Source of the DNA: an uncultured Candidatus Saccharibacteria bacterium
Lineage (GTDB): Bacteria; Patescibacteriota; Minisyncoccia; Minisyncoccales; CAYUYO01
Length of the DNA stretch: 64,000 bases
Assembly: GCA_964449385.1 (NCBI GenBank)
Contig: CAYUYO010000003.1
Span: 483-64,482, forward strand
Reading direction: 5' to 3'
Both the position numbers and the translations under genes were made by a program. Below the pieces are notes generated by a model. That model saw only the letters and a list, made by a program, of their open reading frames with translations. It made no database searches and was not told the origin of the DNA. Below, piece after piece: positions 385 to 64,000 of the stretch; within the stretch, counting starts at the first letter, position 1; every line of letters starts with the position of its first letter.

Positions 385-394
385 TTTTTAATAC

Positions 395-430: not shown

Positions 431-441
431 ACTCACTTTTT

Positions 442-1482: not shown

Positions 1483-1498
1483 TAATTAATTCTTCGCC

Positions 1499-1825: not shown

Positions 1826-3662
1826 AACAGAAATTGAGCCGCACGAGATTCTCTTAGATAAACTTGCTCAAAAAAAAGAAGAAGAATTAGGTGTTTCAGA
1901 ACAAAAATTTGAAGTTCCCCTTCAAGAAAAAGTTTTGAAATTGTTTCTATTTTTTACTTTATTTTTAATTTTAGTTATTTTTGCCAAAACCTTTCAATTT
2001 CAAGTAGTTGAGGGCAAAAACCTTTCAGCTTTAGCTGAAAGAAATAAATTTATCATTCGTCAGATTCAAGCTGAAAGAGGAGTAATTTATGATAAAGACT
2101 TAAATCAACTGGTTTTCAATCAGCCGAGTTTTGATTTAATTTGCAGGAAAAATAATTTTTCAAAAGAAGAAGAAAAGAGAGAAGAGATTTTAAGGGAAAT
2201 TGCCGAGATTACTGGAAAAGAATTTGAGAGCTTAAAAGAAAAAATTGAAAAAAGTAAAGATTCTTTGGTAGTAATTTCAGAGAACCTTGACCATCAAACA
2301 CTAATAGTCCTTGAAACAAAAATTAAAGAACTTACCGGTTTTCAAATTGAAAACAATACGGTGAGGGATTATTTAGATGGTGCTGTTTTTTCACATTTAA
2401 TTGGTTATAAAAGAAAAACTGGGGAATTAACTGGTTTAGAAGAATTCTATAATGAAATATTAATAGAAAAACCAGGGGAAATTTTAACCGAAAGAAATGC
2501 TGAAGGAAATTTTATTTCAGAAGAAATCAGCAAAGTTCCGGAATCGGGAGATAGTCTGGTTTTATGGTTAGACTCTGGACTTCAGAAAAAAATTGAAGAG
2601 GAATTAAAAAAAAGACTAAAAGAAACCGGAGCAGAAGCAGGAACAGTAGTAGCTTTAGATCCGAAAACCGGAGGAGTTTTATCTTTAGTTAGTGTCCCAA
2701 GTTTTGACAATAATTTATTTTCTAAAGGAATGTCTGATGAAGAATGGGAGCAAATTAACAATAATCCTCTGAATCCGCTTTTTAATCAGGCTATTTCCGG
2801 AGAATATCCCACCGGTTCTAATATTAAACCTTTAACTGCTGCGGCAGCTTTAGAGGAAAAGATAATTTCTCCTGAAAAAAAGATTAATTGCTTAGGGGAA
2901 ATTAACGTTCCGGATTTTTGGAACCCGGAAAAAACTTGGGAGTATAAAGATTGGAAAGTCCACGGTTGGACAGATATGAGAAAAGCTATTGCGGAATCTT
3001 GTAATGTTTATTTTTATACAATTGGAGGAGGATATGAAGATCAGGAGGGACTAGGTCCTACCAGAATTAAAAAGTATCTTGAACTTTTCGGTTGGGGAGA
3101 AAAAACGGGAATTGACCTTCCGGGAGAAGAAAAAGGATTTATTCCCGACCCTGCTTGGAAAAAAGCAGTTAAAGGAGAGAATTGGTTAGACGGAGACACT
3201 TATCATTTATCAATTGGTCAGGGTTATCTTGGAATAACCCCTCTTCAGATGGCAACCAGTTTTGTGTCTATCGCCAATGGTGATAAATTGTTTCGTCCCC
3301 AAGTAGTAAAAGAAATCATTGATAAAGATAAAAACTTAATCAAAGAGATAAAACCTGAAATTATCAGAGAAGGATTTATTAAACCAGAGAACCTAAAAGT
3401 AGTTCGAGAAGGAATGAAGCAAGCAGTAACTAATGGTACGGCTACGGGCTGGTTGGACCAACTGAATGTTTCTGCTGCTTGTAAAACAGGAAGTGCTCAA
3501 ACCGAAAAAAAAGATATTTTGGATAATTGGATTACTGTTTTTGCTCCATATGATGAGCCTCAAATAGTTTTAACTATAATGATTAAAGATGTTAAGGAGG
3601 GTCAATCTGTAACCCAACCATTAGCTCAAAGAATTTTGGAGTGGTATTTTGCCTCAAAATAA
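1785..3662 (+). CDS. mrdA: Penicillin-binding protein 2 (elongasome transpeptidase)
   Basis: N-terminal TM, ERGVIYD dimerisation-domain motif, and transpeptidase triad SNIK (SxxK), SCN (SxN), KTGSA (KTG). Confidence 0.9.
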   Translation: MFKFHQLKVKLYSETEIEPHEILLDKLAQKKEEELGVSEQKFEVPLQEKVLKLFLFFTLFLILVIFAKTFQFQVVEGKNLSALAERNKFIIRQIQAERGVIYDKDLNQLVFNQPSFDLICRKNNFSKEEEKREEILREIAEITGKEFESLKEKIEKSKDSLVVISENLDHQTLIVLETKIKELTGFQIENNTVRDYLDGAVFSHLIGYKRKTGELTGLEEFYNEILIEKPGEILTERNAEGNFISEEISKVPESGDSLVLWLDSGLQKKIEEELKKRLKETGAEAGTVVALDPKTGGVLSLVSVPSFDNNLFSKGMSDEEWEQINNNPLNPLFNQAISGEYPTGSNIKPLTAAAALEEKIISPEKKINCLGEINVPDFWNPEKTWEYKDWKVHGWTDMRKAIAESCNVYFYTIGGGYEDQEGLGPTRIKKYLELFGWGEKTGIDLPGEEKGFIPDPAWKKAVKGENWLDGDTYHLSIGQGYLGITPLQMATSFVSIANGDKLFRPQVVKEIIDKDKNLIKEIKPEIIREGFIKPENLKVVREGMKQAVTNGTATGWLDQLNVSAACKTGSAQTEKKDILDNWITVFAPYDEPQIVLTIMIKDVKEGQSVTQPLAQRILEWYFASK

Positions 3663-4017
3663 AATAAATTAAAAGGTCGCAAATGTAATTAAAAAATAAA
3701 AGATAAAAAAAATGGGAATAGGATGGCAAAACAAAAAACGACTTAATAGAAAGTTGAAAAAGAGGGGTATTTTAAAAAATAAGTCAAAGAAAAAAAGGAA
3801 ATAATTAAAGTTTAGACTAAAACTAATAGAAATTAAATTGTCAGAAAAATTGGATGCTTTTAGAATACGGAGGGCTTATTATTTTAACTGTAACTATCAT
3901 ATAGTTGTTAGCAGGAAGAATTCCAGAGTATTTAATTATTATACTTTTGGATTCTGAAATATTGATTTTTTTCTTTTACTAAAAACAAGTGTGAATTTTT
4001 GCATTTGTCTTTTTCTT

Positions 4018-4046
4018 TTGACCTTCTTTTTAAAATAAAGTAGAAT
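4018..4046 (+). promoter_or_regulatory. Sigma70-type promoter of lysS (near-leaderless)
   Basis: TTGACC 4018-4023, 17-nt spacer, TAGAAT 4041-4046. The ATG at 4056 is only 9 nt after the -10. Confidence 0.55.
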
Positions 4047-4055
4047 TATACTAAC

Positions 4056-5519
4056 ATGGCAACGATTGATAAATTGAAAAAAAATAGATTAAAAAAACTG
4101 GAAGCAATTAAAAAAAGCGGTATTTTAGCTTATCCAGCTACTGTTAAAAGAACTCATAAAATATCTGATGCCTTAAAAAGTTTTTCTTCTATTTCTAGTC
4201 TCAAGAAGGAAGTAATTTTAGTAGGTCGTATTTATTCTTTAAGAGTACATGGTGGAGCAACTTTTTTTGATATTAATGATGGCTCAGCTAAAATTCAAGC
4301 TTATCTTAAAAAAGATAGAGTTGGAGAATTAGTTTACGAGTTTTTTTTGAATAATTTTGATATAGGAGATTTTATTGAAATAAGGGGAATTTTATTTAAA
4401 ACCAAAAAAGGAGAAAAAACTCTGGAAATAGCAGATTATAAAATATTGGCAAAATCCTTATTGCCCTTGCCTGAAAAATGGCATGGTTTAAAAGATGTCG
4501 AAGAAAGATTTAGAAAAAGGTATTTAGATTTAATTTTTAATCCTGAAGTAAAGAAGAAATTTGAAATTCGTTCGGCAATTATTAAAGAAATTCGCAATTT
4601 TTTAGAAAAAGAAGGATTTTTAGAAGTAGAAACTCCGATTTTACAGCCAATTTATGGAGGAGCACGAGCAAAGCCTTTTAAAACTCATCTTAATGTTTTA
4701 GATATTGATTTATATTTAAGGATTTCTCCGGAACTTTATTTAAAGAGATTACTTGTTGGCGGATTTGAAAAAGTTTATGAAATTGGAAAATGTTTTCGAA
4801 ATGAAGGAATAGACAGGGCGCATAATCCGGATTTTACTGAATTAGAATTTTATTGGGCCTATGCTGATTATAAAGATATGATGAAACTTACCGAAAAAAT
4901 GTTTGTTTCTGTTCTAAAAAAAGTTTTTGGTAAATTGGAAATAGAGCATGAAGGTAAAAAGATTAATTTTAAACCTCCTTGGCAGCGGATTGAATTTTAT
5001 CAATTGCTTAAAAAATATACCGGAATTAATTTAGATGAAATTAATCAGCCAGCTTTATATAAAAAAGCTATAGAATTGGGAGTTAAGATTGAAAAAGAAA
5101 GGGCTAAAGCTGAAATTGCAGATGAAATTTATAAGAAATTTTGTAGACCTAAAATTTTAAAGCCATGCTTTATCATTAATCATCCTTTAGGTTTTCAACC
5201 CTTAGCTAAATCCTTAAATGATAGACCTTTAAAATTGGCCAGTTTTCAACTTTTAGCCGGAGGAGTAGAACTTATTAATGCTTTTTCGGAACTTAATAAT
5301 CCCTTAGAACAAAGAAAAAGATTTAAAGAACAGGAAGAATCATTTAAATCTGGCTTAGAAGAAGCTCAAAGAATGGATAAGGATTTTGTAGAAGCCTTGG
5401 AGTATGGTATGCCGCCGGCCGCTGGATTTGGCATGGGAATTGACAGATTAGTTGCTTTATTAACTGATTCCCATAGCTTAAGAGAAGTAATTTTATTTCC
5501 AATAATGAAAGCTAAATAA
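4056..5519 (+). CDS. lysS: Lysine--tRNA ligase, class II
   Basis: OB-fold N-terminus plus class II motifs (FRNEGID, RAHNPDFTELEFYWAY, GFGMGIDRL). Confidence 0.95.
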   Translation: MATIDKLKKNRLKKLEAIKKSGILAYPATVKRTHKISDALKSFSSISSLKKEVILVGRIYSLRVHGGATFFDINDGSAKIQAYLKKDRVGELVYEFFLNNFDIGDFIEIRGILFKTKKGEKTLEIADYKILAKSLLPLPEKWHGLKDVEERFRKRYLDLIFNPEVKKKFEIRSAIIKEIRNFLEKEGFLEVETPILQPIYGGARAKPFKTHLNVLDIDLYLRISPELYLKRLLVGGFEKVYEIGKCFRNEGIDRAHNPDFTELEFYWAYADYKDMMKLTEKMFVSVLKKVFGKLEIEHEGKKINFKPPWQRIEFYQLLKKYTGINLDEINQPALYKKAIELGVKIEKERAKAEIADEIYKKFCRPKILKPCFIINHPLGFQPLAKSLNDRPLKLASFQLLAGGVELINAFSELNNPLEQRKRFKEQEESFKSGLEEAQRMDKDFVEALEYGMPPAAGFGMGIDRLVALLTDSHSLREVILFPIMKAK

Positions 5520-9160: not shown

Positions 9161-10428
9161 GTTTTTTATCACCAATTTCAACATCTTTATCACCAAACAC
9201 CGAAAATGACGATATTCGACTATCTTTTAAATTACTTTTTCAGCCTTGGAAATTTAAGAAAGGCGTAGCCGTTAGACAATTAGAAGAAGAATTTAAGAAA
9301 TATTTAAAAGTAAAATATTCTTTTTCTTTTAATAGCGGGCGATCTGGTTTAATGGCAATTTTAGATGCTTTAGATATAAAAAAATGCGATGATGAAATTT
9401 TACTTCAAGCTTTTACCTGTAATGCAGCGGTAAATCCTATTTTAGAAAGAGGGGCTAAGCCAATTTTTGTAGATATTGACGATACTCTTAATTTAGATCC
9501 AGAAGATTTAAAGAAAAAAATTACTTCTAGATCAAAAGCAGTTATTATCCAGCATACTTTTGGTTGGCCTGCTGAAGGGATTGAGGAAATTTTAGAGATT
9601 GTTAAGAGAAATAATTTATATTTAATTGAGGATTGCGCTCATAGTTTAGGAGCAAGATATAAAGGCAAACCTTGTGGAACTTTTGGAGATATTGCTTTTT
9701 TTAGTTTTGGTAGGGATAAAATAATTTCTTCGGTATTCGGTGGAATAGTAGTGACTAATAATGAAAAATTAGCTGAGAGAATAAAAAAATTTCAAGAAAA
9801 AATTGATTACAATTCAAATTTATGGATCTTTCAACAGTTATTACATCCAGTTTTAATGAATTATTTAATTTTGCCAGCTTACAAATTAAATGAATATTTA
9901 GGAAAAGTTTTTTTAGTAGCTTTTCATAAACTTTTAATTTTATCAAAATCGGTTTACAAAAAAGAAAAAAGAGGAAAAATTCCTAAATATTTTCCTAAGA
10001 AGTTTCCTAATAGCTTAGCTATTTTAGCTTTAAATCAGTTTAGAAAATTAGAAAAGTTTAATAAACACCGAAGGAAAATAGCTGATTTTTATGAAAAAGA
10101 ATTAAAAAATACTGATTTTATTTTGCCATTTAATAAGCATATTAAAGATAGAATACCAGTTTTTATGCGTTATTCGATTTTAACTAACTTTAATACAAAT
10201 GAAATTTTAATAGAAGCGAGAAAAAGAAAAATTTTTTTAAATGATGGCTGGCGAAAAAAACCTATAGTTCCTCCTGATACCGACCTAGAAAAAATTGAAT
10301 ATGTATTAGGAAGCTGTCCTAAGGTAGAAAAAGTTGCTGAAAAAATTTTAAATTTACCGACTCATATAAATATTTCAGAAAAACGGGCTAAAAGAATTGT
10401 TAATTTTCTAAAAAATTATGGAAATTAA
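9157..10428 (+). CDS. DegT/DnrJ/EryC1/StrS-family PLP aminotransferase
   Basis: IIQHTFGWPA, EDCAHSLGA and the FSFGRDKIIS lysine motif are typical of the sugar aminotransferase family. 4-bp overlap with the murF-like gene. Confidence 0.8.
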   Translation: MSFLSPISTSLSPNTENDDIRLSFKLLFQPWKFKKGVAVRQLEEEFKKYLKVKYSFSFNSGRSGLMAILDALDIKKCDDEILLQAFTCNAAVNPILERGAKPIFVDIDDTLNLDPEDLKKKITSRSKAVIIQHTFGWPAEGIEEILEIVKRNNLYLIEDCAHSLGARYKGKPCGTFGDIAFFSFGRDKIISSVFGGIVVTNNEKLAERIKKFQEKIDYNSNLWIFQQLLHPVLMNYLILPAYKLNEYLGKVFLVAFHKLLILSKSVYKKEKRGKIPKYFPKKFPNSLAILALNQFRKLEKFNKHRRKIADFYEKELKNTDFILPFNKHIKDRIPVFMRYSILTNFNTNEILIEARKRKIFLNDGWRKKPIVPPDTDLEKIEYVLGSCPKVEKVAEKILNLPTHINISEKRAKRIVNFLKNYGN

Positions 10429-11440
10429 GGAAATAACTAATAAAGAAATCTGGGAAGATTTTCTTTTAAGATATAAAGAAAAGACTTTTTTGAGTTCTTG
10501 GAATTGGGGAGAATTTCAAAAAATGATGGGAAATAAAATTTGGAGATTGGGAATTTACGACAAAGAAAAATTGCTTGGACTTTCTTTAGTTTCAAAAATA
10601 ATAGCTAAACGAGACACTTTTCTTTTAATTCAACATGGGCCGAATATTAATGTTTTCAAACGCGAGATTTTTAAAACATTATTAGAAAAACTTAAAAAAA
10701 TTGGAAAGAAAGAAAAAGCAAGTTTTATTAGAATAAATCCTTTGTGGGAAAAAACTGAAGAAAATAAAGCAATATTTCGTGATTTAGAGTTTAGAGAAGC
10801 TCCAATGCATGCTAATTCTTATGAAAGTACTTGGAAGCTTGATATTAATTTTTCAGAAGACGAACTTTTAAAAAATATGCGGAAAACTACACGCTATCTT
10901 ATTCGTAAAACATCGCTTAATCAAAATATTGTAATTGAAAAAAGCATGAAATCAGATGATGTTAAAATATACCAAAAACTTGTTGAAGAAGTAGCTGCGG
11001 TTCAAAAATTCATACCCTTTTCTTTCAAATATGTAAAAAATGAGTTCAATATTTTTTTAAAAAACAAAGAAGTAATGTTGTTTTTTGGAAAATATCAAGG
11101 AAAAATTATATCTTCAGCTTTAATTATTTTTTGGCAAAAAATTGGTTTTTATCACCAGGCTGCTTTATTGCCGCAATATCATAAAATTCCAGCTGCTTAT
11201 CTTTTACAGTGGGAGGCGATTAAAGAAGCAAAAAAAAGAGGATGTGTTTTATATGATTTTTGGGGTTATATTAATCCTAAAAAACAGTCAAAACATCCTT
11301 GGGCTGGTCCCACTCTTTTTAAAATGGGTTTCGGCGGTTATAAAAAAGAATACTTAAAAACTCAGGATTTTCCTCTTTCAAAAAAATACTGGCTCACTTT
11401 TATTTTTGAGAAATTAAGGAAAATAAAAAGAGGTTTATGA
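10418..11440 (+). CDS. FemAB/MurM-family peptidoglycan branch peptidyltransferase-like protein
   Basis: 340 aa with FLSSWNWGEFQK, YHQAALLPQY and LQWEAIKEAKKRGCVLYDFWG, resembling FemX/MurM-type aminoacyl transferases. Confidence 0.7.
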   Translation: MEIKEITNKEIWEDFLLRYKEKTFLSSWNWGEFQKMMGNKIWRLGIYDKEKLLGLSLVSKIIAKRDTFLLIQHGPNINVFKREIFKTLLEKLKKIGKKEKASFIRINPLWEKTEENKAIFRDLEFREAPMHANSYESTWKLDINFSEDELLKNMRKTTRYLIRKTSLNQNIVIEKSMKSDDVKIYQKLVEEVAAVQKFIPFSFKYVKNEFNIFLKNKEVMLFFGKYQGKIISSALIIFWQKIGFYHQAALLPQYHKIPAAYLLQWEAIKEAKKRGCVLYDFWGYINPKKQSKHPWAGPTLFKMGFGGYKKEYLKTQDFPLSKKYWLTFIFEKLRKIKRGL

Positions 11441-12241: not shown

Positions 12242-13153
12242 TTATAGCCATTTCTTTTTACGGAAATAAATTATCATAATTCCAATTAAAAATAGCATTG
12301 TTAATATTATTATTGGAAAACCGAACTGAGAATTATTAAAAGGAAGAATAATATTCATTCCCCAGATACTGGCAATTAAAGTTAATGGAAGCATAATCAC
12401 CGAAAAGACGGTTAAAACTCGCATAACCTCATTTATTTTAGCTGAAAGAAGAGATTGATTGGTGTCTTCTAAGGCTAAAATTGTTTCTTTATAAGTTTGT
12501 AAACTATTACTAGCTTGCGAATATATGCCTATAATGTCGGAGAAGTAGGGAAGTAAGCTTTCTCCAAAAAAAATTACCCCTTCTTTAGAAAGCGATTCTA
12601 AAGTTTCTCCTTGAGGTTCGACAATCCGCCAAAAATTAATTATGTCAGTTTTAACTAACGAAATTTCGGTTACCATTTCTTTTTCTTTTCCCTGGAAAAT
12701 TTCTTCTTCGATATTTTCTATCTTAGAATCAATTCTGTCTAATTTAGTGAGGCAGTTGTTCCAAAATTCATTAAGAAGAAAAAATAAAAGATAACCAGCA
12801 CTCAAACTCATATATTTTTTTCTTGCTTCGGGATAAAGATTACATTTATCAAATAGAATTTTTAAAGGAACAAGTGATTTATAATGATTGGTGATTAAAA
12901 CATTTTTAGTTATAATGATATCTAGTTCTCTGGGTTTGGTTTCCCTCTTTTCTTTACTATAAATAGGATAATGAAAAACCATAAAAAGATATTTTTTATA
13001 AGATTCTACTTTTGGTCGATGACTTGGTGGAATTAATTCTTCCAATACTAAAGGATGAAGATCGAATTCTCTTTTTAAATATTTTATATCTTCCTCGGTT
13101 GGATTTTTAATATCAACCCAAGTTACATTTTCACCCTTGATAATAAATTTCAT
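12242..13153 (-). CDS. corA: CorA-family magnesium/cobalt transporter
   Basis: C-terminal two TMs with a GMN motif (IWGMNIILPF). The track ORF runs to a GTG at 13300 and overlaps grpE. I prefer the ATG at 13153, preceded by TGGTAAAAT; an ATG at 13183 is also possible. Confidence 0.85.
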   Translation of the reverse strand: MKFIIKGENVTWVDIKNPTEEDIKYLKREFDLHPLVLEELIPPSHRPKVESYKKYLFMVFHYPIYSKEKRETKPRELDIIITKNVLITNHYKSLVPLKILFDKCNLYPEARKKYMSLSAGYLLFFLLNEFWNNCLTKLDRIDSKIENIEEEIFQGKEKEMVTEISLVKTDIINFWRIVEPQGETLESLSKEGVIFFGESLLPYFSDIIGIYSQASNSLQTYKETILALEDTNQSLLSAKINEVMRVLTVFSVIMLPLTLIASIWGMNIILPFNNSQFGFPIIILTMLFLIGIMIIYFRKKKWL

Positions 13154-13714: not shown

Positions 13715-15589
13715 ATGGCAAAAATTTTAGGCATAGATTTAGGTACAACTTTTTCGGCTATGGCAGTGATTGAAGCCGGTGAGCCGAAGATTGTTGAAAA
13801 TAAAGAAGGAGGAAGAATTACTCCTTCTGTCGTAGCCGTGACTAAAACCGGAGAAAGGTTAGTTGGTATTACATCTAAAAGACAGCAAATTACTAATCCT
13901 AAGAATACTATTTTTTCAATTAAAAGATTGATAGGCAGACATTTTTCTGACCAAGAAGTTCAAAAAGATAAAAAACTTTTACCTTATGAATTAAAAGAGG
14001 CAAGTGATGGCGGGATTGATGTAAAGATGGGAGATAAATGGTTTAAACCAGCTGAAATTTCGGCCCAGATTTTACAGAAATTAAAGATTGATGCCGAGGA
14101 AAAATTAGGAGAAAAAATCGAAGAAGCAATCATCACTTGTCCGGCTTATTTTGATGACAGCCAAAGAAAAGCAACTAAAGTAGCAGGAGAAGTTGCAGGA
14201 TTTAAAGTAAGAAGAGTAATTAATGAACCGACAGCTGCTGCATTAGCTTACGGATTAACTAAAAAAGGAGAGAAGCAAATTATTGTTTATGATTTTGGCG
14301 GTGGCACTTTTGACGTTTCTATTTTGGACGTTTCTGAAGAAACGGTTAGAGTTATAGGAACTGGCGGAGATACTCATTTAGGCGGAGATGATTTTGACCA
14401 AAGAATAATGGATTGGATAGTTAATGAATTCAAAAAAGATCAGGGAATTGATTTGTCAAAAGATCCCTTGGCTTTGCAAAGAATTAAAGAAGCTGCCGAG
14501 AAAGCAAAAATAGAATTATCAACCGCTTTAGAAAGTGAAATTAATCTTCCTTTTGTTACTTCTGATGCTGCAGGACCAAAGCATCTTTATTACAAATTAA
14601 CCCGGGCAAAGTTAGAAGACTTAGTTTCAGATTATATTGCTAAATCACTTGAAGTAACTAAGCAAACTTTGAAAGAAGCTAAACTGGAACCAAAAGATAT
14701 TGAAGAGATAGTTTTAGTTGGCGGTCAAATCCGAATGCCGAAAATTCAAGAAGAAATTAAAAAACTTTTTAACAAAGAGCTTTGTAAAGAAATTAATCCT
14801 GACGAAGTAGTAGCTATTGGAGCAGCTATTCAAGGAGGAATTTTACAGGGAGAGATGAAAGAAGTTTTACTTTTGGATGTTACACCGCTTTCTTTGGGTA
14901 TTGAAACACTAGGAGGAGTGAGTACTGTTTTAATTTCTAAGAACACTACTGTCCCGACGGCAAAAACTCAAATTTTTTCTACAGCTGCTGAGAGTCAAAC
15001 TACTGTTGAAATTCATATTTTACAAGGAGAAAGGCCAATGGCAATAGATAATAAAACCTTAGGAAAGTTTATTCTGGATGGTATTCCACCTGCTCCCAGA
15101 GGTATTCCTCAAATTGAAGTTACTTTTGATATTGACGCTAATGGTATTTTAAATGTTACGGCCAAAGATAAAGCTACTAATAAAGTTCAGTCAATCAAGA
15201 TTGAAGGTTCAATAGGTATTTCTAAAGAGGAGGTAGAGAAAATGAAAAAAGAAGCAGAATTACATGCTACTGAAGATAAAAAGAAGCAGGAAATCATTGA
15301 AAATAGAAATTTAGCCGATAATATGATTTATACTACTGAGAAAACTTTAAAAGAAGCCGGAGATAAAGTTGCCACAGATTTAAAAAAAGAGATTGAAGAA
15401 AAAATTGAAGCTTTAAAAAAAGTCAAAGATGGTGATAATATAGAAGAAATAAAAAGTAAAACTTCAGAACTTTCTCAAGCAGTCCAGAAAGTTGGAGCAG
15501 AGTTATATAAACAAACCGCTGAAACAAAAAAACCAGAACAAGAAGAAGAGAAAAAAGGTCCTGAAGAAGGAGAATACAAAGAAAAGTAA
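13715..15589 (+). CDS. dnaK: Chaperone DnaK (Hsp70)
   Basis: GIDLGTT, DFGGGTFDVS, VLVGGQIRMP and the EEVD-less acidic tail give an unambiguous Hsp70. Confidence 0.98.
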   Translation: MAKILGIDLGTTFSAMAVIEAGEPKIVENKEGGRITPSVVAVTKTGERLVGITSKRQQITNPKNTIFSIKRLIGRHFSDQEVQKDKKLLPYELKEASDGGIDVKMGDKWFKPAEISAQILQKLKIDAEEKLGEKIEEAIITCPAYFDDSQRKATKVAGEVAGFKVRRVINEPTAAALAYGLTKKGEKQIIVYDFGGGTFDVSILDVSEETVRVIGTGGDTHLGGDDFDQRIMDWIVNEFKKDQGIDLSKDPLALQRIKEAAEKAKIELSTALESEINLPFVTSDAAGPKHLYYKLTRAKLEDLVSDYIAKSLEVTKQTLKEAKLEPKDIEEIVLVGGQIRMPKIQEEIKKLFNKELCKEINPDEVVAIGAAIQGGILQGEMKEVLLLDVTPLSLGIETLGGVSTVLISKNTTVPTAKTQIFSTAAESQTTVEIHILQGERPMAIDNKTLGKFILDGIPPAPRGIPQIEVTFDIDANGILNVTAKDKATNKVQSIKIEGSIGISKEEVEKMKKEAELHATEDKKKQEIIENRNLADNMIYTTEKTLKEAGDKVATDLKKEIEEKIEALKKVKDGDNIEEIKSKTSELSQAVQKVGAELYKQTAETKKPEQEEEKKGPEEGEYKEK

Positions 15590-24546: not shown

Positions 24547-25503
24547 TTATTCTTTAAGATTTTTGCCGCTATGGTATTGACGATGAATATCACGAAGACG
24601 TTTGTTTGTTACATGAGTATATATTTGGGTTGTAATAATACTTCTGTGGCCTAAAAATTCCTGGATACTTCGTAGATCAACGCCTTGAGTTAGTAAATCG
24701 GTTGCCATTGAATGCCTTAATGTATGAGGGGTTGTAAATACAGGAACGCCTGCTGAGATTGCATATTTTTTGACAATTCTTTCTATAGAACGCGATGTTA
24801 GGCGAGCATCCGCATCTTTTCTAGCTCTGTAATGAATGAATAAGGCCTTATCTTTATCTTTACGGGTTTTTAAATATTGTTTGATCCAAGACAAAGCTCT
24901 TTCAGAAAAATAAACAGTTCTAGGGTGACTTCCTTTACCAATAATCCCAAGTTCTAAATCTTTTTTGTTTTCTATATTAGTAAATTGTTCTTTATTGAGA
25001 GCAACTAATTCAGCAACTCTTAATCCGGTTGAGAAGAGAGATTCCAAAATAGCTCTATCTCTTAAGCCTTTTTGAATTTTAGTATTGGGGGCTAATAAAA
25101 GTTTCTCAATTTGATCTAAATTTAGGAATTTTACAGTTTTTTCCGCTTTAGCGTCTTTTGGAAGAGTTATTTTGTCTGCGGGGAGTGATATTAGGTCTTT
25201 GGCAGTAAAATAGCTCAAAAGGGCTCTCAGGGCGATTAAATAGTAGTTCTGGGTTGTCTTCTTTAAGGAATGACCCCTTTGGTCTTGAAAACGGCTTAAA
25301 AACAATCTATAAGCCCAAATATCTTCTGCGGCAAGTTCATGTGGTAGGAGATATTCTTTTTTATTTTTTTTTAGCCAGAAAACAAATTTAGCGAGGTAGC
25401 GCTGGTAATTCTTTTGAGTATTATCTGATAAACCTTTTTCAACTTCACAATAATCTAAAAAATCTGGGATATGTTTGATGATGCTTTTATCAGATTTTTT
25501 CAT
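24547..25503 (-). CDS. xerC: Tyrosine recombinase, XerC/XerD-like
   Basis: N-terminal SAM-like core-binding domain. Catalytic residues are in TGLRVAELVAL, HTLRHSMATDL and LGHRSIITTQIYTHV. Confidence 0.9.
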   Translation of the reverse strand: MKKSDKSIIKHIPDFLDYCEVEKGLSDNTQKNYQRYLAKFVFWLKKNKKEYLLPHELAAEDIWAYRLFLSRFQDQRGHSLKKTTQNYYLIALRALLSYFTAKDLISLPADKITLPKDAKAEKTVKFLNLDQIEKLLLAPNTKIQKGLRDRAILESLFSTGLRVAELVALNKEQFTNIENKKDLELGIIGKGSHPRTVYFSERALSWIKQYLKTRKDKDKALFIHYRARKDADARLTSRSIERIVKKYAISAGVPVFTTPHTLRHSMATDLLTQGVDLRSIQEFLGHRSIITTQIYTHVTNKRLRDIHRQYHSGKNLKE

Positions 25504-48988: not shown

Positions 48989-49339
48989 TTAGAAAATTTT
49001 AGTTCCTGGTGGTACTTCTTCGTCTGGTTCTAAAATTACTGGTCGACCTTCAACACTTGCTGCTAAAAGCATACCTTGGCTTTTAATACCTTTCAAAATT
49101 TTTGGTTCTAAATTCATCACTACTACAATTTCTCTTCCAATTAAATTCTCTGGTTGATAAAATTTGCTGATTCCAGCTACTAATTCTCTTTTTTCTTCAC
49201 CTAAATCAACTTTTAATCTTAAAAGCTTATTAGATCCTTTTATCTTCTCTGCTTCAATTACTTTTCCGATTCTTAAATCAATTTTTTGAAACTCTTCAAA
49301 ATTAATCATATGTTTTATCCTATCAAAAAATCGCTCCAT
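48989..49339 (-). CDS. tRNA-binding (CsaA/Trbp111-like OB-fold) protein
   Basis: FQKIDLRIGKVIEAEKI...KLLRLKVDLGEE...SQGMLLAA. The start could be the internal ATG at 49309. Confidence 0.8.
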   Translation of the reverse strand: MERFFDRIKHMINFEEFQKIDLRIGKVIEAEKIKGSNKLLRLKVDLGEEKRELVAGISKFYQPENLIGREIVVVMNLEPKILKGIKSQGMLLAASVEGRPVILEPDEEVPPGTKIF

Positions 49340-49380
49340 TAGCGATTCTTTAGTCTTTTAAAAAATTATTCTATTATTAT

Positions 49381-52937: not shown

Positions 52938-52980
52938 ATTTTTTATTAATTAATTATTATTTTGTTTTATTTATTCTACC

Positions 52981-53007
52981 AAAAAACCGCCATCTTGGCG
53001 ATTTTTT
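52981..53007 (-). terminator. Repeat-family terminator copy E1, with T-tract running into TGGTAGAAT
   Basis: Plus strand reads AAAAAACCGCCATCTTGGCGATTTTTT and is symmetric, so it is bidirectional. On the minus strand an extended -10 TGGTAGAAT (52973-52981) follows directly. Confidence 0.7.
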
Positions 53008-53092
53008 CTCAGTTTTAATTATTTAAGTAGTTTTATTGGTGTTTAATCGACGCGTCTCGGTCAAGTTTTTTTAAGTTAGTTAAAGTAAGATA

Positions 53093-54070: not shown

Positions 54071-54148
54071 ATTTTTATTTTATTATACTTTTATTAACAA
54101 GATACTTTTATTATACAAGGTAAAAGAATTATTGTCGACTGAATAACA

Positions 54149-55120
54149 TTAGAATTCCGTCTTTTCTAAAATCAAATCGTTGAGTATTTTTTTAACAAGT
54201 TCAATGCTTTCCCAATCAAATATTGAAATCGGCATTACATTTTTATTTAATTCTCTAAATTTCTTTATTATCTCGGTAATAGTATCAGACGAAACTAAAT
54301 CTTTTTTGCTTATAAAAAGATACTCCGATTTTTCTAAAAGCATTTTATTATATGCCCCTAATTCATTGCGCACCGTTTTATAATCCAAAACCGGATTGAC
54401 CGAATCGGCAGTCACAAAATGAAATAGAATTTTCGTGCGTTCTATATGTCGCAAAAATTTAATCCCAAGACCCTTACCCAAAGAAGCTCCTTCAATAAGT
54501 CCGGGAATATCAGCCAGTATTAAATCAAAATAAACGCCTAAATTCGGTTCCAAAGTAGTAAATGGATAATTAGCCACTTTGATTTTGGTATTAGTCAGTT
54601 CGTTGATCAAACTTGATTTACCTACATTAGGCAACCCTATAAGTCCGACATCGGCAATCAACTTCAATTCAAGATGAATTTCGGACGATTCGCCCGGCTT
54701 TCCATATTCAAAATTTTTCGGAGAAGTATTTGTAGAAGACCTGAAATGAAAATTTCCTCTTCCTCCATGTCCGCCTTGAACAACCAATTCCCGCTTACCT
54801 ATTTTAGTTATTTCAAAATCTTGGCCGGTTTTTAGGTTATGTACTACTGTTCCTACGGGAACCATTAAAACAAGATCTTCTGCATTATGGCCATCGCGAA
54901 ATTGAGAACGGCCGTCTTCTCCGTTTTTAGCTTTAAATTCTTTTTTAAAACGGAATTTATTAAGTGCACTTAAATTAGAAATTCCTTCAACATAAATACT
55001 GCCGCCTTTACCGCCGCTTCCTCCCACGGGTCCCAGGGACATTAAATTTTTATTAAACGCCACCATTCCCTTTCCTCCCGATCCGGCTATTACGCGTATT
55101 TTTACATCATCAATAAGCAT
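54149..55120 (-). CDS. obg: GTPase Obg/CgtA
   Basis: Glycine-rich Obg fold (AGSGGKGMVAF, GGSGGKGGSIY) and G domain GLIGLPNVGKSS, DIPGLIEGAS. Confidence 0.93.
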   Translation of the reverse strand: MLIDDVKIRVIAGSGGKGMVAFNKNLMSLGPVGGSGGKGGSIYVEGISNLSALNKFRFKKEFKAKNGEDGRSQFRDGHNAEDLVLMVPVGTVVHNLKTGQDFEITKIGKRELVVQGGHGGRGNFHFRSSTNTSPKNFEYGKPGESSEIHLELKLIADVGLIGLPNVGKSSLINELTNTKIKVANYPFTTLEPNLGVYFDLILADIPGLIEGASLGKGLGIKFLRHIERTKILFHFVTADSVNPVLDYKTVRNELGAYNKMLLEKSEYLFISKKDLVSSDTITEIIKKFRELNKNVMPISIFDWESIELVKKILNDLILEKTEF

Positions 55121-55674: not shown

Positions 55675-55689
55675 TAAAATTATCTTACC

Positions 55690-55716
55690 AAAAAACCGCC
55701 GAAATGGCGATTTTTT
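55690..55716 (-). terminator. Repeat-family terminator copy E2, followed by TGGTAAGAT
   Basis: AAAAAACCGCCGAAATGGCGATTTTTT. The -10 at 55682-55687 lies 7 nt before the DUF192 ATG (55674). Confidence 0.7.
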
Positions 55717-55807
55717 ATCGATACTCCGAGGAACGGATGATGTTAAAACCTGTTTTATATAAGAAAAATCACATTACTTGAGAGATGATTTTCTATTTAA
55801 AATTATT

Positions 55808-55996: not shown

Positions 55997-56042
55997 AATA
56001 TTATTTATTTAAAACTTTTATAGACCTTTATCTTATTCTACC

Positions 56043-56068
56043 AAAAAACCGCCTGAAAGAATAGGCGG
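56043..56068 (-). terminator. Repeat-family terminator copy E3, followed by TGGTAGAAT
   Basis: CCGCCT (56049-54) / AGGCGG (63-68) with an A/T run. Extended -10 at 56035-56043. Confidence 0.65.
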
Positions 56069-56125
56069 AAATTAGTTGGCATCCTCAGTTTAAAACCCAT
56101 ATTTTAATGGGAAATCTGGTTATTC

Positions 56126-56268
56126 TTAAACTGTCTTGGCAACATACGGCTTTATTTTATTCCAAGGAGCATATTTTGATTTATACCACCTTGATCAACT
56201 GTTTTTTCTCCTGTTAAAATCTTTTCTGTTAAACCCCACGATTTTTTCATTATTGCTATATGTTCCAT
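56126..56268 (-). pseudogene. Frameshifted 5' fragment of an ASCH-domain gene
   Basis: Hand translation gives MEHIAIMKKSWGLTEKILTGEKTV, then a frame loss. Shifting the reading frame by one base restores SRWYKSKYAPWNKIK, the usual continuation in ASCH proteins as I remember them. The reading frame ends after ~45 codons where repeat copy E3 begins. Confidence 0.5.
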
Positions 56269-56279
56269 AATTTTACTGT

Positions 56280-56618
56280 TTATTTTCCGGCAGATCTGTC
56301 AGACCAAACAAGGAAAAGTTTCTTTTTGAAACCTCCTCTTTCTTTTCTTCGCTGTTCCTGTTTTTCTTCGACAAATTCAAAACTTATATTTTCACTTTCA
56401 GCAATAGATTTTATTAGCTCCAAAACATCGGCAAGTTCTTTTGCTAACTCGCTTTTTTCAGCTTCTATTACCTCTTTAACTTCCTCAATCAGTTTTTTCT
56501 TTAGTTCTTTCTTAAATTCATATTCTTCCATAACTCTCAATTCGTATTTGCCATTATTAGCTTTTATAATTTCAGGGATTTTATCTCTTATTAATTTTTT
56601 ATGATAAAACTTTTCCAT
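56280..56618 (-). CDS. MazG-like / phosphoribosyl-ATP-pyrophosphohydrolase-like NTP pyrophosphatase
   Basis: KLIRDKIPEII N-terminus and EExxE-type helices (LIEEVKEVIEAE, ELADVLELI). Confidence 0.7.
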   Translation of the reverse strand: MEKFYHKKLIRDKIPEIIKANNGKYELRVMEEYEFKKELKKKLIEEVKEVIEAEKSELAKELADVLELIKSIAESENISFEFVEEKQEQRRKERGGFKKKLFLVWSDRSAGK

Positions 56619-56634
56619 TTTTTAATTTTAACAT

Positions 56635-56656
56635 AAAAACCGCCGAAATGGCGATT
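56635..56656 (-). terminator. Repeat-family terminator copy E4, followed by TGTTAAAAT
   Basis: AAAAACCGCCGAAATGGCGATT. Extended -10 at 56625-56633, 6 nt before the ATG at 56618. Confidence 0.65.
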
Positions 56657-56818
56657 AATTGCGAGGGCTCAACTCTGAACAAAGTTCGATGTCCTAGACG
56701 AATATCGTTATTCGTAGACAACGATACTCTGGCGATATCTCGAAGATGAAACGCCCGCAAGATTAAACCGTAGCTTAACCTTCATTAATAGACATTTATA
56801 ATTTTATATGGAATCTTG

Positions 56819-56899: not shown

Positions 56900-57511
56900 T
56901 CAGAACTTCCACTTCCGAGCGGACGAAACGCCCAAGACGTCGCAGCGAAAGTCATCAAAGTAGCTGCAGCTATAGAGACAGACCGAAAAGAAGTAGCCAA
57001 TAACGACGCGGCAGCTATCCGAATCCACAGATGACGTTCGAACATAAATATTTTTGAATAGGCGTTCGTTAGTGGTCAAGTAATAGCCGATGATGGTGTA
57101 AATCATCGCTTGAGCTGTGGGCACTTTGTCGTCTTCGCCGAGAAGAGCTTGCTGCTCTTCCCAGTTCTTTCCGAAAGAGTTATCCACTGGGGTCTTGCGA
57201 ATCAGCTGCCAGCTTGCCTCGCTGTGTTTCTTGGAGAATGACTCCTTGTTATACCACGACTGGTCGTAGAACAACTTGGAATCCATCTTTCCGTGAATCT
57301 CAAGAATCGAGAGCGGGAAGATTGCCACCAGGATGTAAGTCTCCTTTGTTTCCTGAAGCACCGCTTCAGAAAAAGGAATCTCAGATAGAACAAGGGTTTG
57401 CTGGCGGGTCGGGTTAACTCCGAAATGCTGGATGGCCTCCTCGATGCCGAAGAAGTTCTTGCCCATGATTTCACGGGCACGCTTCTGACTGGTCGTCGAC
57501 TTAGTTTTCAT
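56900..57511 (-). CDS. Hypothetical 203-aa protein on a G+C-rich segment
   Basis: GGAGG lies 6 nt before the ATG at 57511. Overlapping spurious ORFs in other frames and on both strands show locally raised G+C. I cannot assign a family. Confidence 0.7.
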   Translation of the reverse strand: MKTKSTTSQKRAREIMGKNFFGIEEAIQHFGVNPTRQQTLVLSEIPFSEAVLQETKETYILVAIFPLSILEIHGKMDSKLFYDQSWYNKESFSKKHSEASWQLIRKTPVDNSFGKNWEEQQALLGEDDKVPTAQAMIYTIIGYYLTTNERLFKNIYVRTSSVDSDSCRVVIGYFFSVCLYSCSYFDDFRCDVLGVSSARKWKF

Positions 57512-57564: not shown

Positions 57565-57621
57565 TATGAGACGAGCATTTTAGAAATCAGTTTAACTGAC
57601 GTCCAAAATGCTCATCTCATA
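57565..57621 (-). promoter_or_regulatory. 17-bp stem-loop in the ~130-nt 5' leader of the 203-aa gene
   Basis: Plus-strand arms TATGAGACGAGCATTTT (57565-81) and AAAATGCTCATCTCATA (57605-21) pair with one G-U. An inner TCAGT/ACTGA stem is present. Candidate promoters are TGTTATAAT (57649-57) and TTGACT-17-TGTAAT (57663-91). Confidence 0.5.
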
Positions 57622-58123: not shown

Positions 58124-58159
58124 AATTTTGTTTAGTTAATTATTTTATCTTATTCTATC

Positions 58160-58182
58160 AAAAAACCGCCTTCTTGGCGATT
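58160..58182 (-). terminator. Repeat-family terminator copy E5, followed by TGATAGAAT
   Basis: AAAAAACCGCCTTCTTGGCGATT. Extended -10 at 58152-58160. Confidence 0.65.
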
Positions 58183-58372
58183 GATTGAGGCGTCTCGATT
58201 TCTCGAAAGGCTCACAAAACTGCTTTGCCCCAGTCTAAAACCAAGGGTTTGAGGGTAATTTTGAGTATTTTAAGGCGTTGTTTCATAACGTCTTCCGGTC
58301 ATGGTTATTTTAACACAAAATGAGACAAATGAGTCAGTGCTTAAGAATACTTCAGTAGAATTGATCCATAAA

Positions 58373-58785: not shown

Positions 58786-58989
58786 TTATAATTTGTAATT
58801 AAATATTTTTTCAATCGGCTGCTTAAAAACAAGGGCAATTTTGAAGGCCAATTCCAGAGAGGGTATGTATTTATTTTTTTCCACGGCAATTATTGTCTGT
58901 CTGGTTACCCCGCACTTGCTCGCCAGTTTTTCCTGGGTCATATTATGTTCGGCGCGGAAAACTTTTATTCCGTTATTCATCTGCGCCAT
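58786..58989 (-). CDS. XRE-family (YozG-like) helix-turn-helix regulator
   Basis: MTQEKLASKCGVTRQTIIAVEKNKYIPSLELAFKIALVF. Confidence 0.85.
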   Translation of the reverse strand: MAQMNNGIKVFRAEHNMTQEKLASKCGVTRQTIIAVEKNKYIPSLELAFKIALVFKQPIEKIFNYKL

Positions 58990-59368
58990 ATTTTTTATTG
59001 AAATAATGATAAGATATTGAGTAAATTGTAATCAGTAACAGAGCGATATAACAGAAGGTCTCCCCAAGTAATTTAAGATAAAAATTTTCACTACCCATAG
59101 CTATAAATATTAGAAAAAGCCCGAGTAAGGAGAGAAGTATGGTTGCTATACTATAGGTTATTTGAGAAGCTCTGCCGCTGACTGAAATAACTCTTTCATC
59201 CACTATAATCTTTTTAAATCTATTTTTTACTAAAAAAAGAAATAGCATTCCAATAAGTATGCCAGAAATTGCTAAATAAAAATTACTAACAATAACTGCC
59301 TCCCATACTATAACTCCAATCAAAAGGCCGATTAAAGTTCTGACTTTTTGATATCGTTTGTAATCCAT
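58973..59368 (-). CDS. Four-TM membrane protein (DUF2178-like) paired with the XRE regulator
   Basis: 131-aa polytopic protein overlapping the HTH gene by 17 nt. Confidence 0.55.
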   Translation of the reverse strand: MDYKRYQKVRTLIGLLIGVIVWEAVIVSNFYLAISGILIGMLFLFLVKNRFKKIIVDERVISVSGRASQITYSIATILLSLLGLFLIFIAMGSENFYLKLLGETFCYIALLLITIYSISYHYFNKKYGADE

Positions 59369-59408: not shown

Positions 59409-59437
59409 ATTGTAAAGTATTCTTTACATTGAGTCAA
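59409..59437 (-). promoter_or_regulatory. Promoter of the membrane-protein/XRE pair
   Basis: Minus strand reads TTGACT (59437-32), 17-nt spacer, TACAAT (59414-09). Confidence 0.5.
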
Positions 59438-59467
59438 TAGCCTATTTATTAACAGGTAAAATATAAA

Positions 59468-59504
59468 CAAAAAAATGCCAGAACGGCGATTTTCTAAATG
59501 GCAT
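59468..59504 (-). terminator. Repeat-family terminator copy E6 (variant)
   Basis: ATGCCA (59475-80) / TGGCAT (59499-504), with AATCGCC retained in the loop and a T/A run outside. Confidence 0.55.
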
Positions 59505-59640
59505 AATTTTGTAATATTTTTAGATAAAATGAGAGTACTAGCATCCTCAGTCTAGTACTGGGGTTTTAAGAGGAATTTAGGCGGTTTGAGGTGTATCTTA
59601 CTGACGCGTTTCGGTCGGGGCGTTTTTAATATTATACTTA

Positions 59641-59817
59641 TTATCTGCCTAAAAATTGAAAGGCTTGGTAAACTAAAAAGGCCGGCCAAACCAAGGCTTT
59701 TAAAAATCCGATAACTCCCATATAGAATGTTGTGGCGTTACCGATAAAATAGACGGCCGCACCAATTATCCCTAAACCATAAACAGCTGACCCGCCATGA
59801 CGAATATGTTCTTTCAT
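59641..59817 (-). CDS. 58-aa two-TM membrane protein (below the ORF-track cutoff)
   Basis: Hand translation: MKEHIRHGGSAVYGLGIIGAAVYFIGNATTFYMGVIGFLKALVWPAFLVYQAFQFLGR. It has its own family promoter (TAGTATAAT, 59856-64) and a terminator downstream. Confidence 0.55.
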   Translation of the reverse strand: MKEHIRHGGSAVYGLGIIGAAVYFIGNATTFYMGVIGFLKALVWPAFLVYQAFQFLGR

Positions 59818-59889: not shown

Positions 59890-60030
59890 AGTATAATACC
59901 CATATAAATTAACAGGAGTGATAAACTCTAATATGCTGCGGGGACTCTATTCGAACCACAGCTTCATTTTATATTCAAAACGCTGTATTTTCCAGTTCGA
60001 ATCTTAGACTGATATCTCATTCAATAACCC

Positions 60031-62118: not shown

Positions 62119-62149
62119 ATTAATGTTTTCAGACGCTGAAAATGGTACC

Positions 62150-62174
62150 AAAAAAAACCGCCCAAATGGCGATT
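62150..62174 (-). terminator. Repeat-family terminator copy E8
   Basis: AAAAAAAACCGCCCAAATGGCGATT. Confidence 0.65.
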
Positions 62175-62318
62175 CTTTGGAGTTTCTCAGTCCCGAATAA
62201 AGTTCAATATCCTAGACGGGTATGGGTCTTGGACGTCTTAAAGCCGTTGCAAAATTAGCTTCAAAATAGGCCTCTCGGTCGCTTAAGCTAAACAAGTGTA
62301 ATCCTAGTATGTTATTTC

Positions 62319-62810: not shown

Positions 62811-64000
62811 TTATTCATAACGTAATGCTTCAATGGGATTAAGTTTGGCTGCTTTCTGAGCAGGCCAATAGCCAAAGCCAATCCCGATGCCAGCAGATAC
62901 GCTAAAGGCTAAAATAATTGAAAAAGAAGAAACTTTTGTAGCCATACCCGTAAAAAATGTTATTCCGAAAGCTAACCCGCTTCCTAAAATTATTCCTATA
63001 GCTCCACCAAGAAAAGTAAGTATTACTGCTTCAACTAAAAATTGTAAACTAATATCAAATCTCTTAGCACCAATAGCTTTGCGAAGGCCGATTTCCCGAG
63101 TTCTTTCAGTTACCGTAGTCATCATCATATTCATAATGCCAATACCGCCAACAATCAGAGAAATTCCAGCAATTGCTGCCAGTAAAATAGTCATTGTGTT
63201 AGTTATCGAAGAGGCGGATTCAAGAATATCCTGCTGACTTGTGACGCTAAAATCAGCCAGCAGAGGATCTGCAATATTATGCAATATCAAAAGAAGATTA
63301 GCGATGCCTGACTGAACTGAAGCCATTGCTTGAGCACTTTCAACCTGAACGTTGATAGTTGAAACATAATCGGCCCCGGCTAAAAATTTCTGAGCAGTAC
63401 TTATAGGAATGAAAATCATGTTGTCTTGACTGCCGAAGCTAGTCCCGCCTTTAGATTGAGTTACGCCAACGACTTTAAAATTTATACCATTGATTCTTAC
63501 TGTTTGACCGACCGGATTTACTTCCTCACCAAAAAGATCATCTCGGGTAGTCGGACCCAAAACCGCTACCTTTGAAAGGGAACGGACATTTTGTTCGGAA
63601 ATAAATGATCCTAGAGCTATTTCAACGTTTTTTACGCTCGAATAAAAGGCAGTCGTTCCAATAACTTGAGTGTTGGTATTTTGACCCTTGGCAATAATCT
63701 GATAACGCTGGGAAAGTTCTGGAGCTACTACTTGAACAAATGGAATTTCATTAGCTATAGCTTCGGCGTCTTCAATAGTCAGGGTCTGGGCACTCCCTCT
63801 GCCAGCCGAAACCTGAGAAAAACTTCTTTGAAATCCCGGGCTCACCGTAATCAAATTAGACCCCATCGATTGAATACTTGATTCAATGGAACCTGTCGCT
63901 CCTTGGCCAATTGAAATCATGGCAATAACCGAACCTATCCCAATAACAATACCTAAAATAGTCAGGCCCGATCTGGTTTTATTAGCAGAAATAGCGAAAT
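62811..64000 (-). CDS. MacB/FtsX-type ABC transporter permease (5' end beyond the window)
   Basis: C-terminal FtsX domain (REIGLRKAIGA, NPIEALRYE). The frame stays open upstream of the track Met and reads ...NKTRSGLTILGIVIGIGSVIAM, the typical MacB N-terminal TM. Confidence 0.85.
   Translation of the reverse strand, partial: FAISANKTRSGLTILGIVIGIGSVIAMISIGQGATGSIESSIQSMGSNLITVSPGFQRSFSQVSAGRGSAQTLTIEDAEAIANEIPFVQVVAPELSQRYQIIAKGQNTNTQVIGTTAFYSSVKNVEIALGSFISEQNVRSLSKVAVLGPTTRDDLFGEEVNPVGQTVRINGINFKVVGVTQSKGGTSFGSQDNMIFIPISTAQKFLAGADYVSTINVQVESAQAMASVQSGIANLLLILHNIADPLLADFSVTSQQDILESASSITNTMTILLAAIAGISLIVGGIGIMNMMMTTVTERTREIGLRKAIGAKRFDISLQFLVEAVILTFLGGAIGIILGSGLAFGITFFTGMATKVSSFSIILAFSVSAGIGIGFGYWPAQKAAKLNPIEALRYE

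Follow-up and report, generated by a model that had tools for sequence, protein, structure and literature searches.

The locus and its intergenic elements

The stretch under study (positions 59468–59626, minus strand) is flanked by the gene of a 58-aa membrane protein (59641–59817) and a DUF2178/XRE operon (58786–59368). It lies in what we call the window (the whole stretch of DNA analyzed, 64,000 nt), a piece of a patescibacterial chromosome with 30% G+C that carries a 23S rRNA 3' end and 5S rRNA at its start, one tRNA-Lys and housekeeping genes, among them dnaK, mur ligases, tRNA synthetases, obg, ychF and efp. The closest species representatives found via YchF were just 58–71% identical in this protein and were labeled Gribaldobacteria, Minisyncoccales or Paceibacterota, and EngB relatives of neighboring genomes carried the label Nealsonbacteria. 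A metagenome scan with Obg yielded 68 loci with about 25–98% identity.

Eight minus-strand intergenic elements, E1–E8, were found between 52.9 and 62.3 kb of the window (Table 1), and the stretch under study corresponds to E6. All motifs quoted in an earlier note on this DNA were located on the minus strand where it had placed them, and the copies began 24–72 nt after the upstream stop codons, in agreement with its estimate of 25–75 nt. The sole family-like match in the window outside this region was a weak module C-like terminator-promoter (AATCGCT...AGCGATT) at 49315–49353 (minus strand), between MazG and tRNA-binding-domain genes.

Table 1. Features of elements E1–E8 in the window. Modules A–D are described in the text; HMM, profile hidden Markov model search.
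Feature	Position	Strand	Evidence
E6, module A copy	59533..59628	-	other-species HMM, model positions 1–96, E=1.8e-15
E6 motifs GACCGAAACGCGTC; CCTCAAACC; TAGACTGAGGATGC	59616–59603; 59591–59583; 59554–59541	-	located in window
E6 mini-hairpin GAC-CG-AAA-CG-(C)-GUC, 5' end of module A	59603..59616	-	5/5 pairs in 13/22 copies
E6 hairpin CCCCAGU-ACUAG-ACUGAGG, version of family CCUUGGU-UCUAG-ACCGAGG	59545..59563	-	most copies 5–7/7 pairs
E6-private 8-bp stem AGUACUAG/CUAGUACU	59534..59559	-	mutually exclusive with family hairpin
E6 terminator	59467..59512	-	inverted repeat found; stem AUGCCA/UGGCAU plus U-run
E5 module A (decaying)	58229..58312	-	other-species HMM, E=1.6e-6
E5 module C: AATCGCCAAGAAGGCGG, T6, GATAGAAT	58152..58206	-	profile match
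E3, only 3' part of module A (AAACTGAGGATGCCAAC)	56073..56133	-	HMM, E=5.8e-5
E3 module C variant CCGCC-N8-GGCGG, T6, GGTAGAAT	56033..56068	-	promoter/terminator scan and profile
E1 module A remnant GACCGAGACGCGTC...TTAAAAC|TGAG	53030..53072	-	HMM, E=3.6e-4
E1 module C, terminator-promoter upstream of ychF	52973..53007	-	profile match
E8, modules B and C, not A	62146..62285	-	HMM, E=1.1e-24; composite positions 114–244 (113–247 by HMM)
E4, 3' part of module B and module C	56626..56718	-	z=7.6 versus E8; profile match
E2, module D (AACAGGTTTTAACATCATCCGTTCCTCGGAG) and module C	55683..55743	-	repeat family D8
E7, D-like piece GGTTCGAATAGAGTCCCCGCAGCA	59933..59957	-	by eye, resembles L090:6875 GGTTCTAATAGCGTTCAGGCCCCGCAGCACC

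E6 extends from a -10-like TTAAAAA through GACCGAAACGCGTC and a C-rich tract to TAGACTGAGGATGCTAGTAC, and in its form of the family hairpin a double change has turned a G-C pair into A-U. Downstream lies a module C remnant, AATCGCCGTTCTGGCAT (59491–59475), which has lost the GGCGG arm and matched module C weakly (E=0.13); here GGCGG has become GGCAT, and the new stem AUGCCA/UGGCAU restores a predicted terminator. A promoter scan placed a separate promoter for the DUF2178 operon further downstream, and E6 is therefore not the leader of this operon. Since E6 sits in the 3' untranslated region (UTR) of the 58-aa membrane-protein gene, it is presumably transcribed together with this gene, and transcription may in addition start from the -10-like box at the 5' edge of E6. 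The DUF2178/XRE operon promoter contains a perfect palindrome, TGTAAAGAATACTTTACA, between its -35 and -10 boxes (59411–59428, minus strand), which probably serves the XRE repressor as operator. Small ORFs in E6 or E3 were discarded as genes; by eye they were not conserved, and their indels were not in threes.

With regard to the other elements, the E5 motif GACCGGAAGACGT begins at 58300, and the E5 counterpart in the closely related locus L089 (loci fetched from related genomes bear L numbers) has diverged, with about 77% identity overall. The E3 motif ACTGAGGATGC is located at 56089–56079. E1 has suffered an internal deletion that removed the 5' strand and loop of the hairpin, and its GACCGAGACGCGTC lies at 53062–53049. 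E8 carries from 62280 the motif copy GACCGAGAGGCC, which is found within module B, and its GGGACUGAG aligns to module B GGAGAUCGAAC, not to ACUGAGGAUGC. E4 directly precedes a 112-aa MazG-like gene predicted to be leaderless, and in E7 the D-like piece is followed by an own terminator (scan) and TAGTATAAT at 59889–59854.

Several other features were observed in this region. A short ORF at 56150–56268 (minus strand; MEHIAIMKKSWGLTEKILTGEKTV...) looks like a truncated remnant of an ASCH-domain gene; in the close relative L089, engB and a 326-aa gene are found at this place instead. A long perfect hairpin, UGAGAUGAGCAUUUU...AAAAUGCUCGUCUCA, occurs at 57565–57619 (minus strand) in the 5' UTR of a 203-aa ORF (56900–57511), with a TTGACT-17-TATAAT promoter just upstream; a second copy of this promoter and hairpin is found in L089 (2960–3100) before a different gene. 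Plus-strand ORFs at 56260–56604 and 62887–63237 are mirror-strand artefacts of the minus-strand MazG-like gene and a MacB-like permease.

A mosaic family restricted to one clade

In related genomes, the motifs of the window proved to be pieces of one longer mosaic element with the order D-A-B-C. Module A (about 95 nt) consists of the mini-hairpin GACCGAGACGGGTC, a C-rich, G-poor tract and CCUUGGU-UCUAG-ACCGAGG-AUGCCAGC, and in the relatives it reads TAAAAT-N6-CCCCGACCGAGACGGGTC...GGAACAC.CCCAAAAGCCCCCAAATTCCCCTTAAAAC..GGTTCTAGACCGAGGATGCCAGC. Module B reads ACCAGTCAGCGCAGTATCGAGGCCGACCGAGAGGCCTATTTTGAAGCTA...CGTCTAGGAYATCGAACTTTRTTCGG... in these genomes. Module C (AATCGCC-N5-GGCGG-T6-TGGTAGAAT) is a terminator fused to an extended -10 promoter. 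Some copies have a further module, D (AACAGGTTCTAACATCGTCCGTCCCTCGGAG), ahead of A, B or C. The combinations A-C, A-B, A-partial B-C, B-C, D-C, D-A and D-B-C were all observed. The earlier note took GACCGAG and ACUGAG to be the ends of each copy; instead, the copies are not self-contained and are variably truncated pieces of the longer D-A-B-C mosaic, whose constant part is the terminator-promoter tail.

Homology was examined with profiles made from other species only. A module A HMM of this kind detected E6, E5, E3 and E1 (E-values in Table 1) and nothing else in the 64 kb, E8 included, whereas corresponding profiles for modules B and C matched E8 and E4. A composite constructed from the relatives alone found E8, E6 (E=6.6e-8), E4 and the tail of E5. 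This match pattern shows that the proposed five-member subfamily is right for E1, E3, E5 and E6 and wrong for E8, which belongs with E4 to module B. When the element bodies were stripped of their terminators and aligned locally in pairs, with dinucleotide shuffles as controls, the result agreed with this division: the claimed similarity held for E5-E6 (z=3.8), E1-E6 (z=3.3) and E1-E5 (z=3.2), was weak for E3 (z≤1.75 with the others) and absent for E8 versus E1, E5 and E6 (about 0), as opposed to z=7.6 for E8-E4. The exact pattern AATCGCC-N5-GGCGG, T-run and TGGTAGAAT was present in five copies in the window, and module C ends most of E1–E8; when two mismatches were allowed, one unrelated match was found elsewhere in the window (12395–12411), with 0.86 expected.

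Individual motifs differed in their enrichment. The 11-nt identity between E3 and E6, ACTGAGGATGC, was confirmed, occurring twice in the window versus 0.04 expected; GACCGRRA occurred 9 times versus 3.06 (1 of 100 shuffles reached 9) and ACGCGT 4 times versus 1.5 (5 of 100 shuffles). On the other hand, the supposed ACUGAG-type end motif (RACTGRG) was not enriched, with 12 occurrences versus 14 expected in the window, nor was CCTCAAACC with one mismatch (13 versus 10). Apart from this lack of enrichment of short motifs, the evidence speaks against chance similarity among A+T-rich intergenic regions, a reading to which we give practically no credence in view of the other-species profile score for E6 (E=1.8e-15), four matches in 64 kb that all fell where predicted and the shuffle z-scores of 3.2–3.8 among E1, E5 and E6. 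The search of related genomes, which revealed module A in clade relatives as at least 20 distinct copies, also bore out the earlier view of a diverging duplicated or mobile element.

The family is intergenic (68 of 69 non-redundant matches), and its copies are co-oriented with the flanking genes, although 17% of gene bases in the loci lie on the other strand. It can be dense: this genome has at least nine copies in about 16 kb, counting both the window and L081:178-265, and L090 has 11 module C copies in 15.9 kb. Matches were confined to loci with Obg identity of at least about 70–73% (up to 98% among the element-bearing loci of the Obg scan) or EngB identity of at least 83%, plus one chimeric contig, and the family was also seen in further EngB-linked loci of the clade. 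By comparison, the family was missing from all 80 loci retrieved with YchF homologues, among them those of the nearest relatives (58–71% YchF identity), and where other Patescibacteria have homologues of the 58-aa gene, no element followed them. In seven clade contigs, whose EngB is 83–95% identical to that of L090, the GACCGAG mini-hairpin follows the EngB stop codon, and the DNA beyond the mini-hairpin was not alignable among them, which speaks for constraint on the mini-hairpin. The chimeric contig, L158 (IMGVR_UViG_3300005663_000640), joins high-GC phage structural genes (1–4200) to a low-GC patescibacterial tail with D, B and C. Two further observations concern related genomes. In L168 (5262–7496), a CBASS-like defence cluster with SMODS and SLATT genes is immediately preceded by a well-preserved module A copy, and L090 contains three copies (9316–9376, 10910–10970 and 15305–15365) of another intergenic repeat module, which consists of a full promoter (TTGACA-N-TGTATAAT) and about 30 nt of conserved 5' UTR.

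Some copies have been homogenized within genomes. For example, the module C loops of L090 read AAGAA in 11 of 11 cases, three module A copies of L089 share derived features, and two D+A copies of L093 are 96% identical, compared with 71–75% for the paralogous upstream genes. Others have decayed; E5, E1 with its internal deletion and the tail of E6 are clearly decaying. E1 was 100% identical to its counterparts in L089 and L083 over 103 nt, while the flanking DUF5671 gene and ychF were 93.5% and 98.3% identical between those strains, respectively. Because the adjoining ychF is itself so similar, perhaps as part of a low-divergence region, the conservation of E1 is not decisive for constraint.

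Predicted roles of modules A and C

The central tract of module A (~45 nt) has 27% C and 10% G, versus 8.8% C and 14% G in other intergenic DNA of the gene strand. The predicted folding of module A was weak (RNAalifold, -0.57 kcal/mol; z=-1.4 for E6 and z=+1.25 for L090 as single copies), in L090 no better than that of shuffled sequence. Two small hairpins, GAC-CG-ARA-CG-N-GUC and CCUUGGU-UCUAG-ACCGAGG, fit most copies, with 83% of cells pairing versus 24–47% in slid controls. No covariation beyond column make-up was detected, as shuffling of partners reached the same pairing in 346 of 500 runs; the pairing thus reflects conservation rather than covariation. Changes in the mini-hairpin were mostly to G-U, with one double change, in L167, and such one-sided G-U changes on the gene strand give a mild hint of pairing at the RNA level. 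The 8-bp stem that had been noticed in E6 does exist, but it is peculiar to this copy (1–6 of 8 pairs in the others) and, not being conserved, was rejected as a family-wide switch.

The motif GACCGAGA occurs in three structural contexts. It forms a stem plus loop in module A, it makes up the 3' strand in the second hairpin, and in module B it lies in a loop, which fits sequence-specific recognition, possibly of the DNA, better than a single fold. Module A comprises a 5-bp mini-hairpin on GACCGAGA, an unstructured C-rich tract and a 7-bp hairpin (3' strand ACCGAGG) followed by AUGCCAGC, and it may act at the RNA level as a 3'-UTR element in termination, processing or stability. The GACCGAG motif and the C-rich core form a candidate site for an RNA- or DNA-binding factor, and the C-rich tract might serve as a loading site for Rho or a C-binding protein. 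A tblastn search for Rho gave no match in about 1.7 Mb of fetched loci, a sample too small to represent the genomes, and a literature search for Rho in this lineage yielded nothing.

In module C, a promoter scan recognized TCGCCA (the 5' strand of the hairpin), a 17-bp spacer and a TAGAAT extended -10 with TG (TGGTAGAAT). In an intact copy, the hairpin AAUCGCC/GGCGGUU and U-run would stop the upstream transcript, and the same DNA would supply the -35-like TCGCCA, spacer and extended -10 for the next, often leaderless, gene. That such genes are leaderless is implied by the position of the next ATG, which follows the -10 by 5–9 nt in 15 of 42 non-redundant copies (peak, 6 nt). In promoter-coupled terminators, the -10 comes immediately after the terminator T-run and the stem-loop DNA acts as the -35 (Fletcher et al., bioRxiv 10.64898/2026.08.19.745784). 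As far as its sequence can tell, module C has exactly this layout, with a G+C-rich stem-loop, a T-run, a -10 and the stem at -35 distance. Many genes in the window and in L090, L092, L095 and L128 appear leaderless, with a -10 box ending 5–9 nt before the ATG; examples are obg, with its start at 55120 (TATACT-AACAAT-ATG), and the genes after E2 (55674) and E4 (56618).

We favor, with moderate confidence, the view that E6 is a partly decayed module A copy belonging to a mosaic with a promoter-coupled-terminator tail, a presumed RNA-level role in 3' UTRs and spread by recombination. A stronger claim for RNA function, which we hold to be possible and rather unlikely, is that modules A and B constitute an undescribed functional RNA element of a Nealsonbacteria-like clade, with module C hairpins as preferred crossover points. 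The element might then be a small RNA encoded in several copies, or a site in 3' UTRs at which Rho or a GACCGAG-recognizing C-binding protein is loaded, and crossovers in module C that shuffle single-gene transcription units would explain the scrambled gene order between close relatives in this clade. In Rfam 15, no family matched the window, the relatives' loci or cut-out fragments, the only sub-threshold hits being spurious and some of them terminator-driven. Scans at both gathering and E-value thresholds likewise revealed no riboswitch, and a likeness to the fluoride and ZTP riboswitches was considered and dropped.

In a related proposal, module A, with or without B, and a terminator would form a multi-copy family of small-RNA genes that act in trans through the C-rich tract, as do the LhrC, RsaE and csRNA families through a single-stranded C-rich tract. 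Each gene would have its own TAAAAT box 6–8 nt upstream of CCCCGACCGAG and would produce a discrete transcript of 100–280 nt starting at CCCCGACC. Consistent with this, the conserved unit includes a -10-like box in 12 of 15 copies, in several cases with TG upstream of it and in some with another terminator before it, the module A unit ends in a terminator, and the family is multi-copy and keeps a C-rich unstructured core despite sequence drift. However, -10-like boxes are common in DNA of 30% G+C, and in E6 and L092 the box is TAAAAA, without the key final T. Several copies begin at or next to the upstream stop codon with no intervening terminator and are hence 3' UTRs anyway; besides, many genes offer no Shine-Dalgarno sequence or leader with which a C-rich seed could pair, and many copies are truncated or decayed. 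On balance, a small-RNA family seems doubtful to us, and the 3'-UTR role described above is preferred.

Spread of the family and comparison with known repeats

Gene order around obg was already lost at 88–92% Obg identity. In a comparison with the 98% relative, two homology breakpoints fell in the module C hairpin loop, upstream of 62-aa and 125-aa genes, one further breakpoint was just after a stop codon and one was away from any element. None of the strain breakpoints coincided with the GACCGAG or ACUGAG boundaries, at which the earlier note had expected them. Recombination among near-identical module C copies is the simplest reading of the two loop breakpoints, and the family appears to spread and reshuffle by recombination and homogenization between intergenic copies rather than by transposition. 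In addition, strain variants (L082, L083 and L089) have a split HAD-like hydrolase gene between obg and the DUF5671 gene (54071–54160 in the window; 10134–10733 in L089). Their identity to the window drops from 99.8% to about 94% exactly at the 3' end of obg, suggestive of a recombination tract.

Transposition was considered in the form of MITE-like non-autonomous elements moved by a transposase encoded elsewhere, as Correia and BOX elements are thought to be. The family is indeed multi-copy, intergenic and modular, and copies within a genome are more alike than those between genomes (the L090 loops and the L089 module A copies). Yet no terminal inverted repeats bounded four representative copies, no target-site duplication was seen at the two strain junctions examined, and the strict co-orientation with genes would be unexpected under random insertion. 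No transposase turned up when 20 window ORFs were scanned with Pfam, nor in the precomputed Pfam assignments for genes in fetched loci, and altogether we judge this origin improbable.

We attach still less weight to the idea that the pieces are leftovers of tmRNA or tRNA 3' ends from serial island integration, or integron-like cassette sites. The 3' end of Escherichia coli ssrA, UAGUACCGAGGAUG...GGGUUCAACUCC...ACCA, resembles a variant tail in L093 and L095, UAGACCGAGGAUGCC...GGGUUCAAAUCC...AACCA, and the two breakpoints in the module C loop and the gene order scrambled at 88–92% Obg identity could be read in this way, but tmRNA (RF00023) was not detected at the gathering score or at E≤10 in the window, nine loci or cut-out fragments, and ARAGORN found no tRNA or tmRNA in the fetched loci, with only a spurious cloverleaf at relaxed thresholds. 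Moreover, the essential genes obg, ychF and engB lie between elements, no phage link was found, and the only recombinase among the 20 window ORFs scanned (24547–25503, about 27 kb away) is of XerC/D type, scoring 86.5 bits versus the 265-bit integron-integrase cut-off. Two other candidates were rejected. A phage attachment site found no support in two scans of viral collections, which returned one chimeric contig and, in the coding sequence of a high-GC phage, one match attributable to chance. A DNA uptake sequence was likewise dismissed, as AATCGCC occurred 11 times in 64 kb, six of them within elements, and no 8-mer was over-represented.

If the favored reading is correct, a limited set of repeated modules would make up much of the intergenic DNA in one clade, and one module would both terminate a transcript and launch the next, often leaderless, gene. 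This would provide a concrete, testable case of promoter-terminator coupling in a minimal genome, in a group, the Patescibacteria, that is almost unstudied at the transcription level. The module sequences would also serve as markers for annotating transcription units in these genomes. No major concept is changed, as mosaic intergenic repeats are already known in other bacteria.

The resemblance to promoter-coupled terminators applies to module C alone and not to module A, with which we began, and the copy belonging to E6 is degenerate. Module C further differs from them in being a near-identical repeat (AATCGCC-N5-GGCGG) rather than a set of independently evolved sites, and its predicted promoter would commonly drive leaderless genes. 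The core of module A, C-rich, G-poor, unstructured and situated just after a stop codon, recalls rut sites. These are usually longer (about 70–80 nt) and not conserved in sequence, whereas the motifs flanking the core of module A are strongly conserved. The Correia elements of Neisseria are MITEs with 26-bp terminal inverted repeats, a TA target duplication and an IHF site, which have promoter and terminator activity and are co-transcribed with neighboring genes. The elements described here share with them the intergenic location, the combination of promoter and terminator (predicted here) and presumed co-transcription, but the terminal inverted repeats, TA duplication and IHF site are all absent.

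The closest parallels are BOX elements of Streptococcus pneumoniae, composed of modules boxA-B-C, and the BIME/REP mosaics of enterobacteria. BOX and BIME often occur in 3' UTRs and can affect termination, mRNA stability and expression of neighboring genes; BOX and REP are strongly palindromic. Like these, the present elements are short, multi-copy, intergenic and lineage-restricted, combine modules (here D-A-B-C) in varying ways, include copies homogenized within genomes and are frequently positioned in 3' UTRs. In contrast, the order here always ends in a functional-looking terminator-promoter, orientation strictly follows transcription, module A has little predicted secondary structure, the sequences are unrelated and no RAYT-type or other transposase was present among the genes checked here. 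The family is thus a clade-specific mosaic intergenic repeat of the BOX/BIME-like kind and a previously undescribed member of it.
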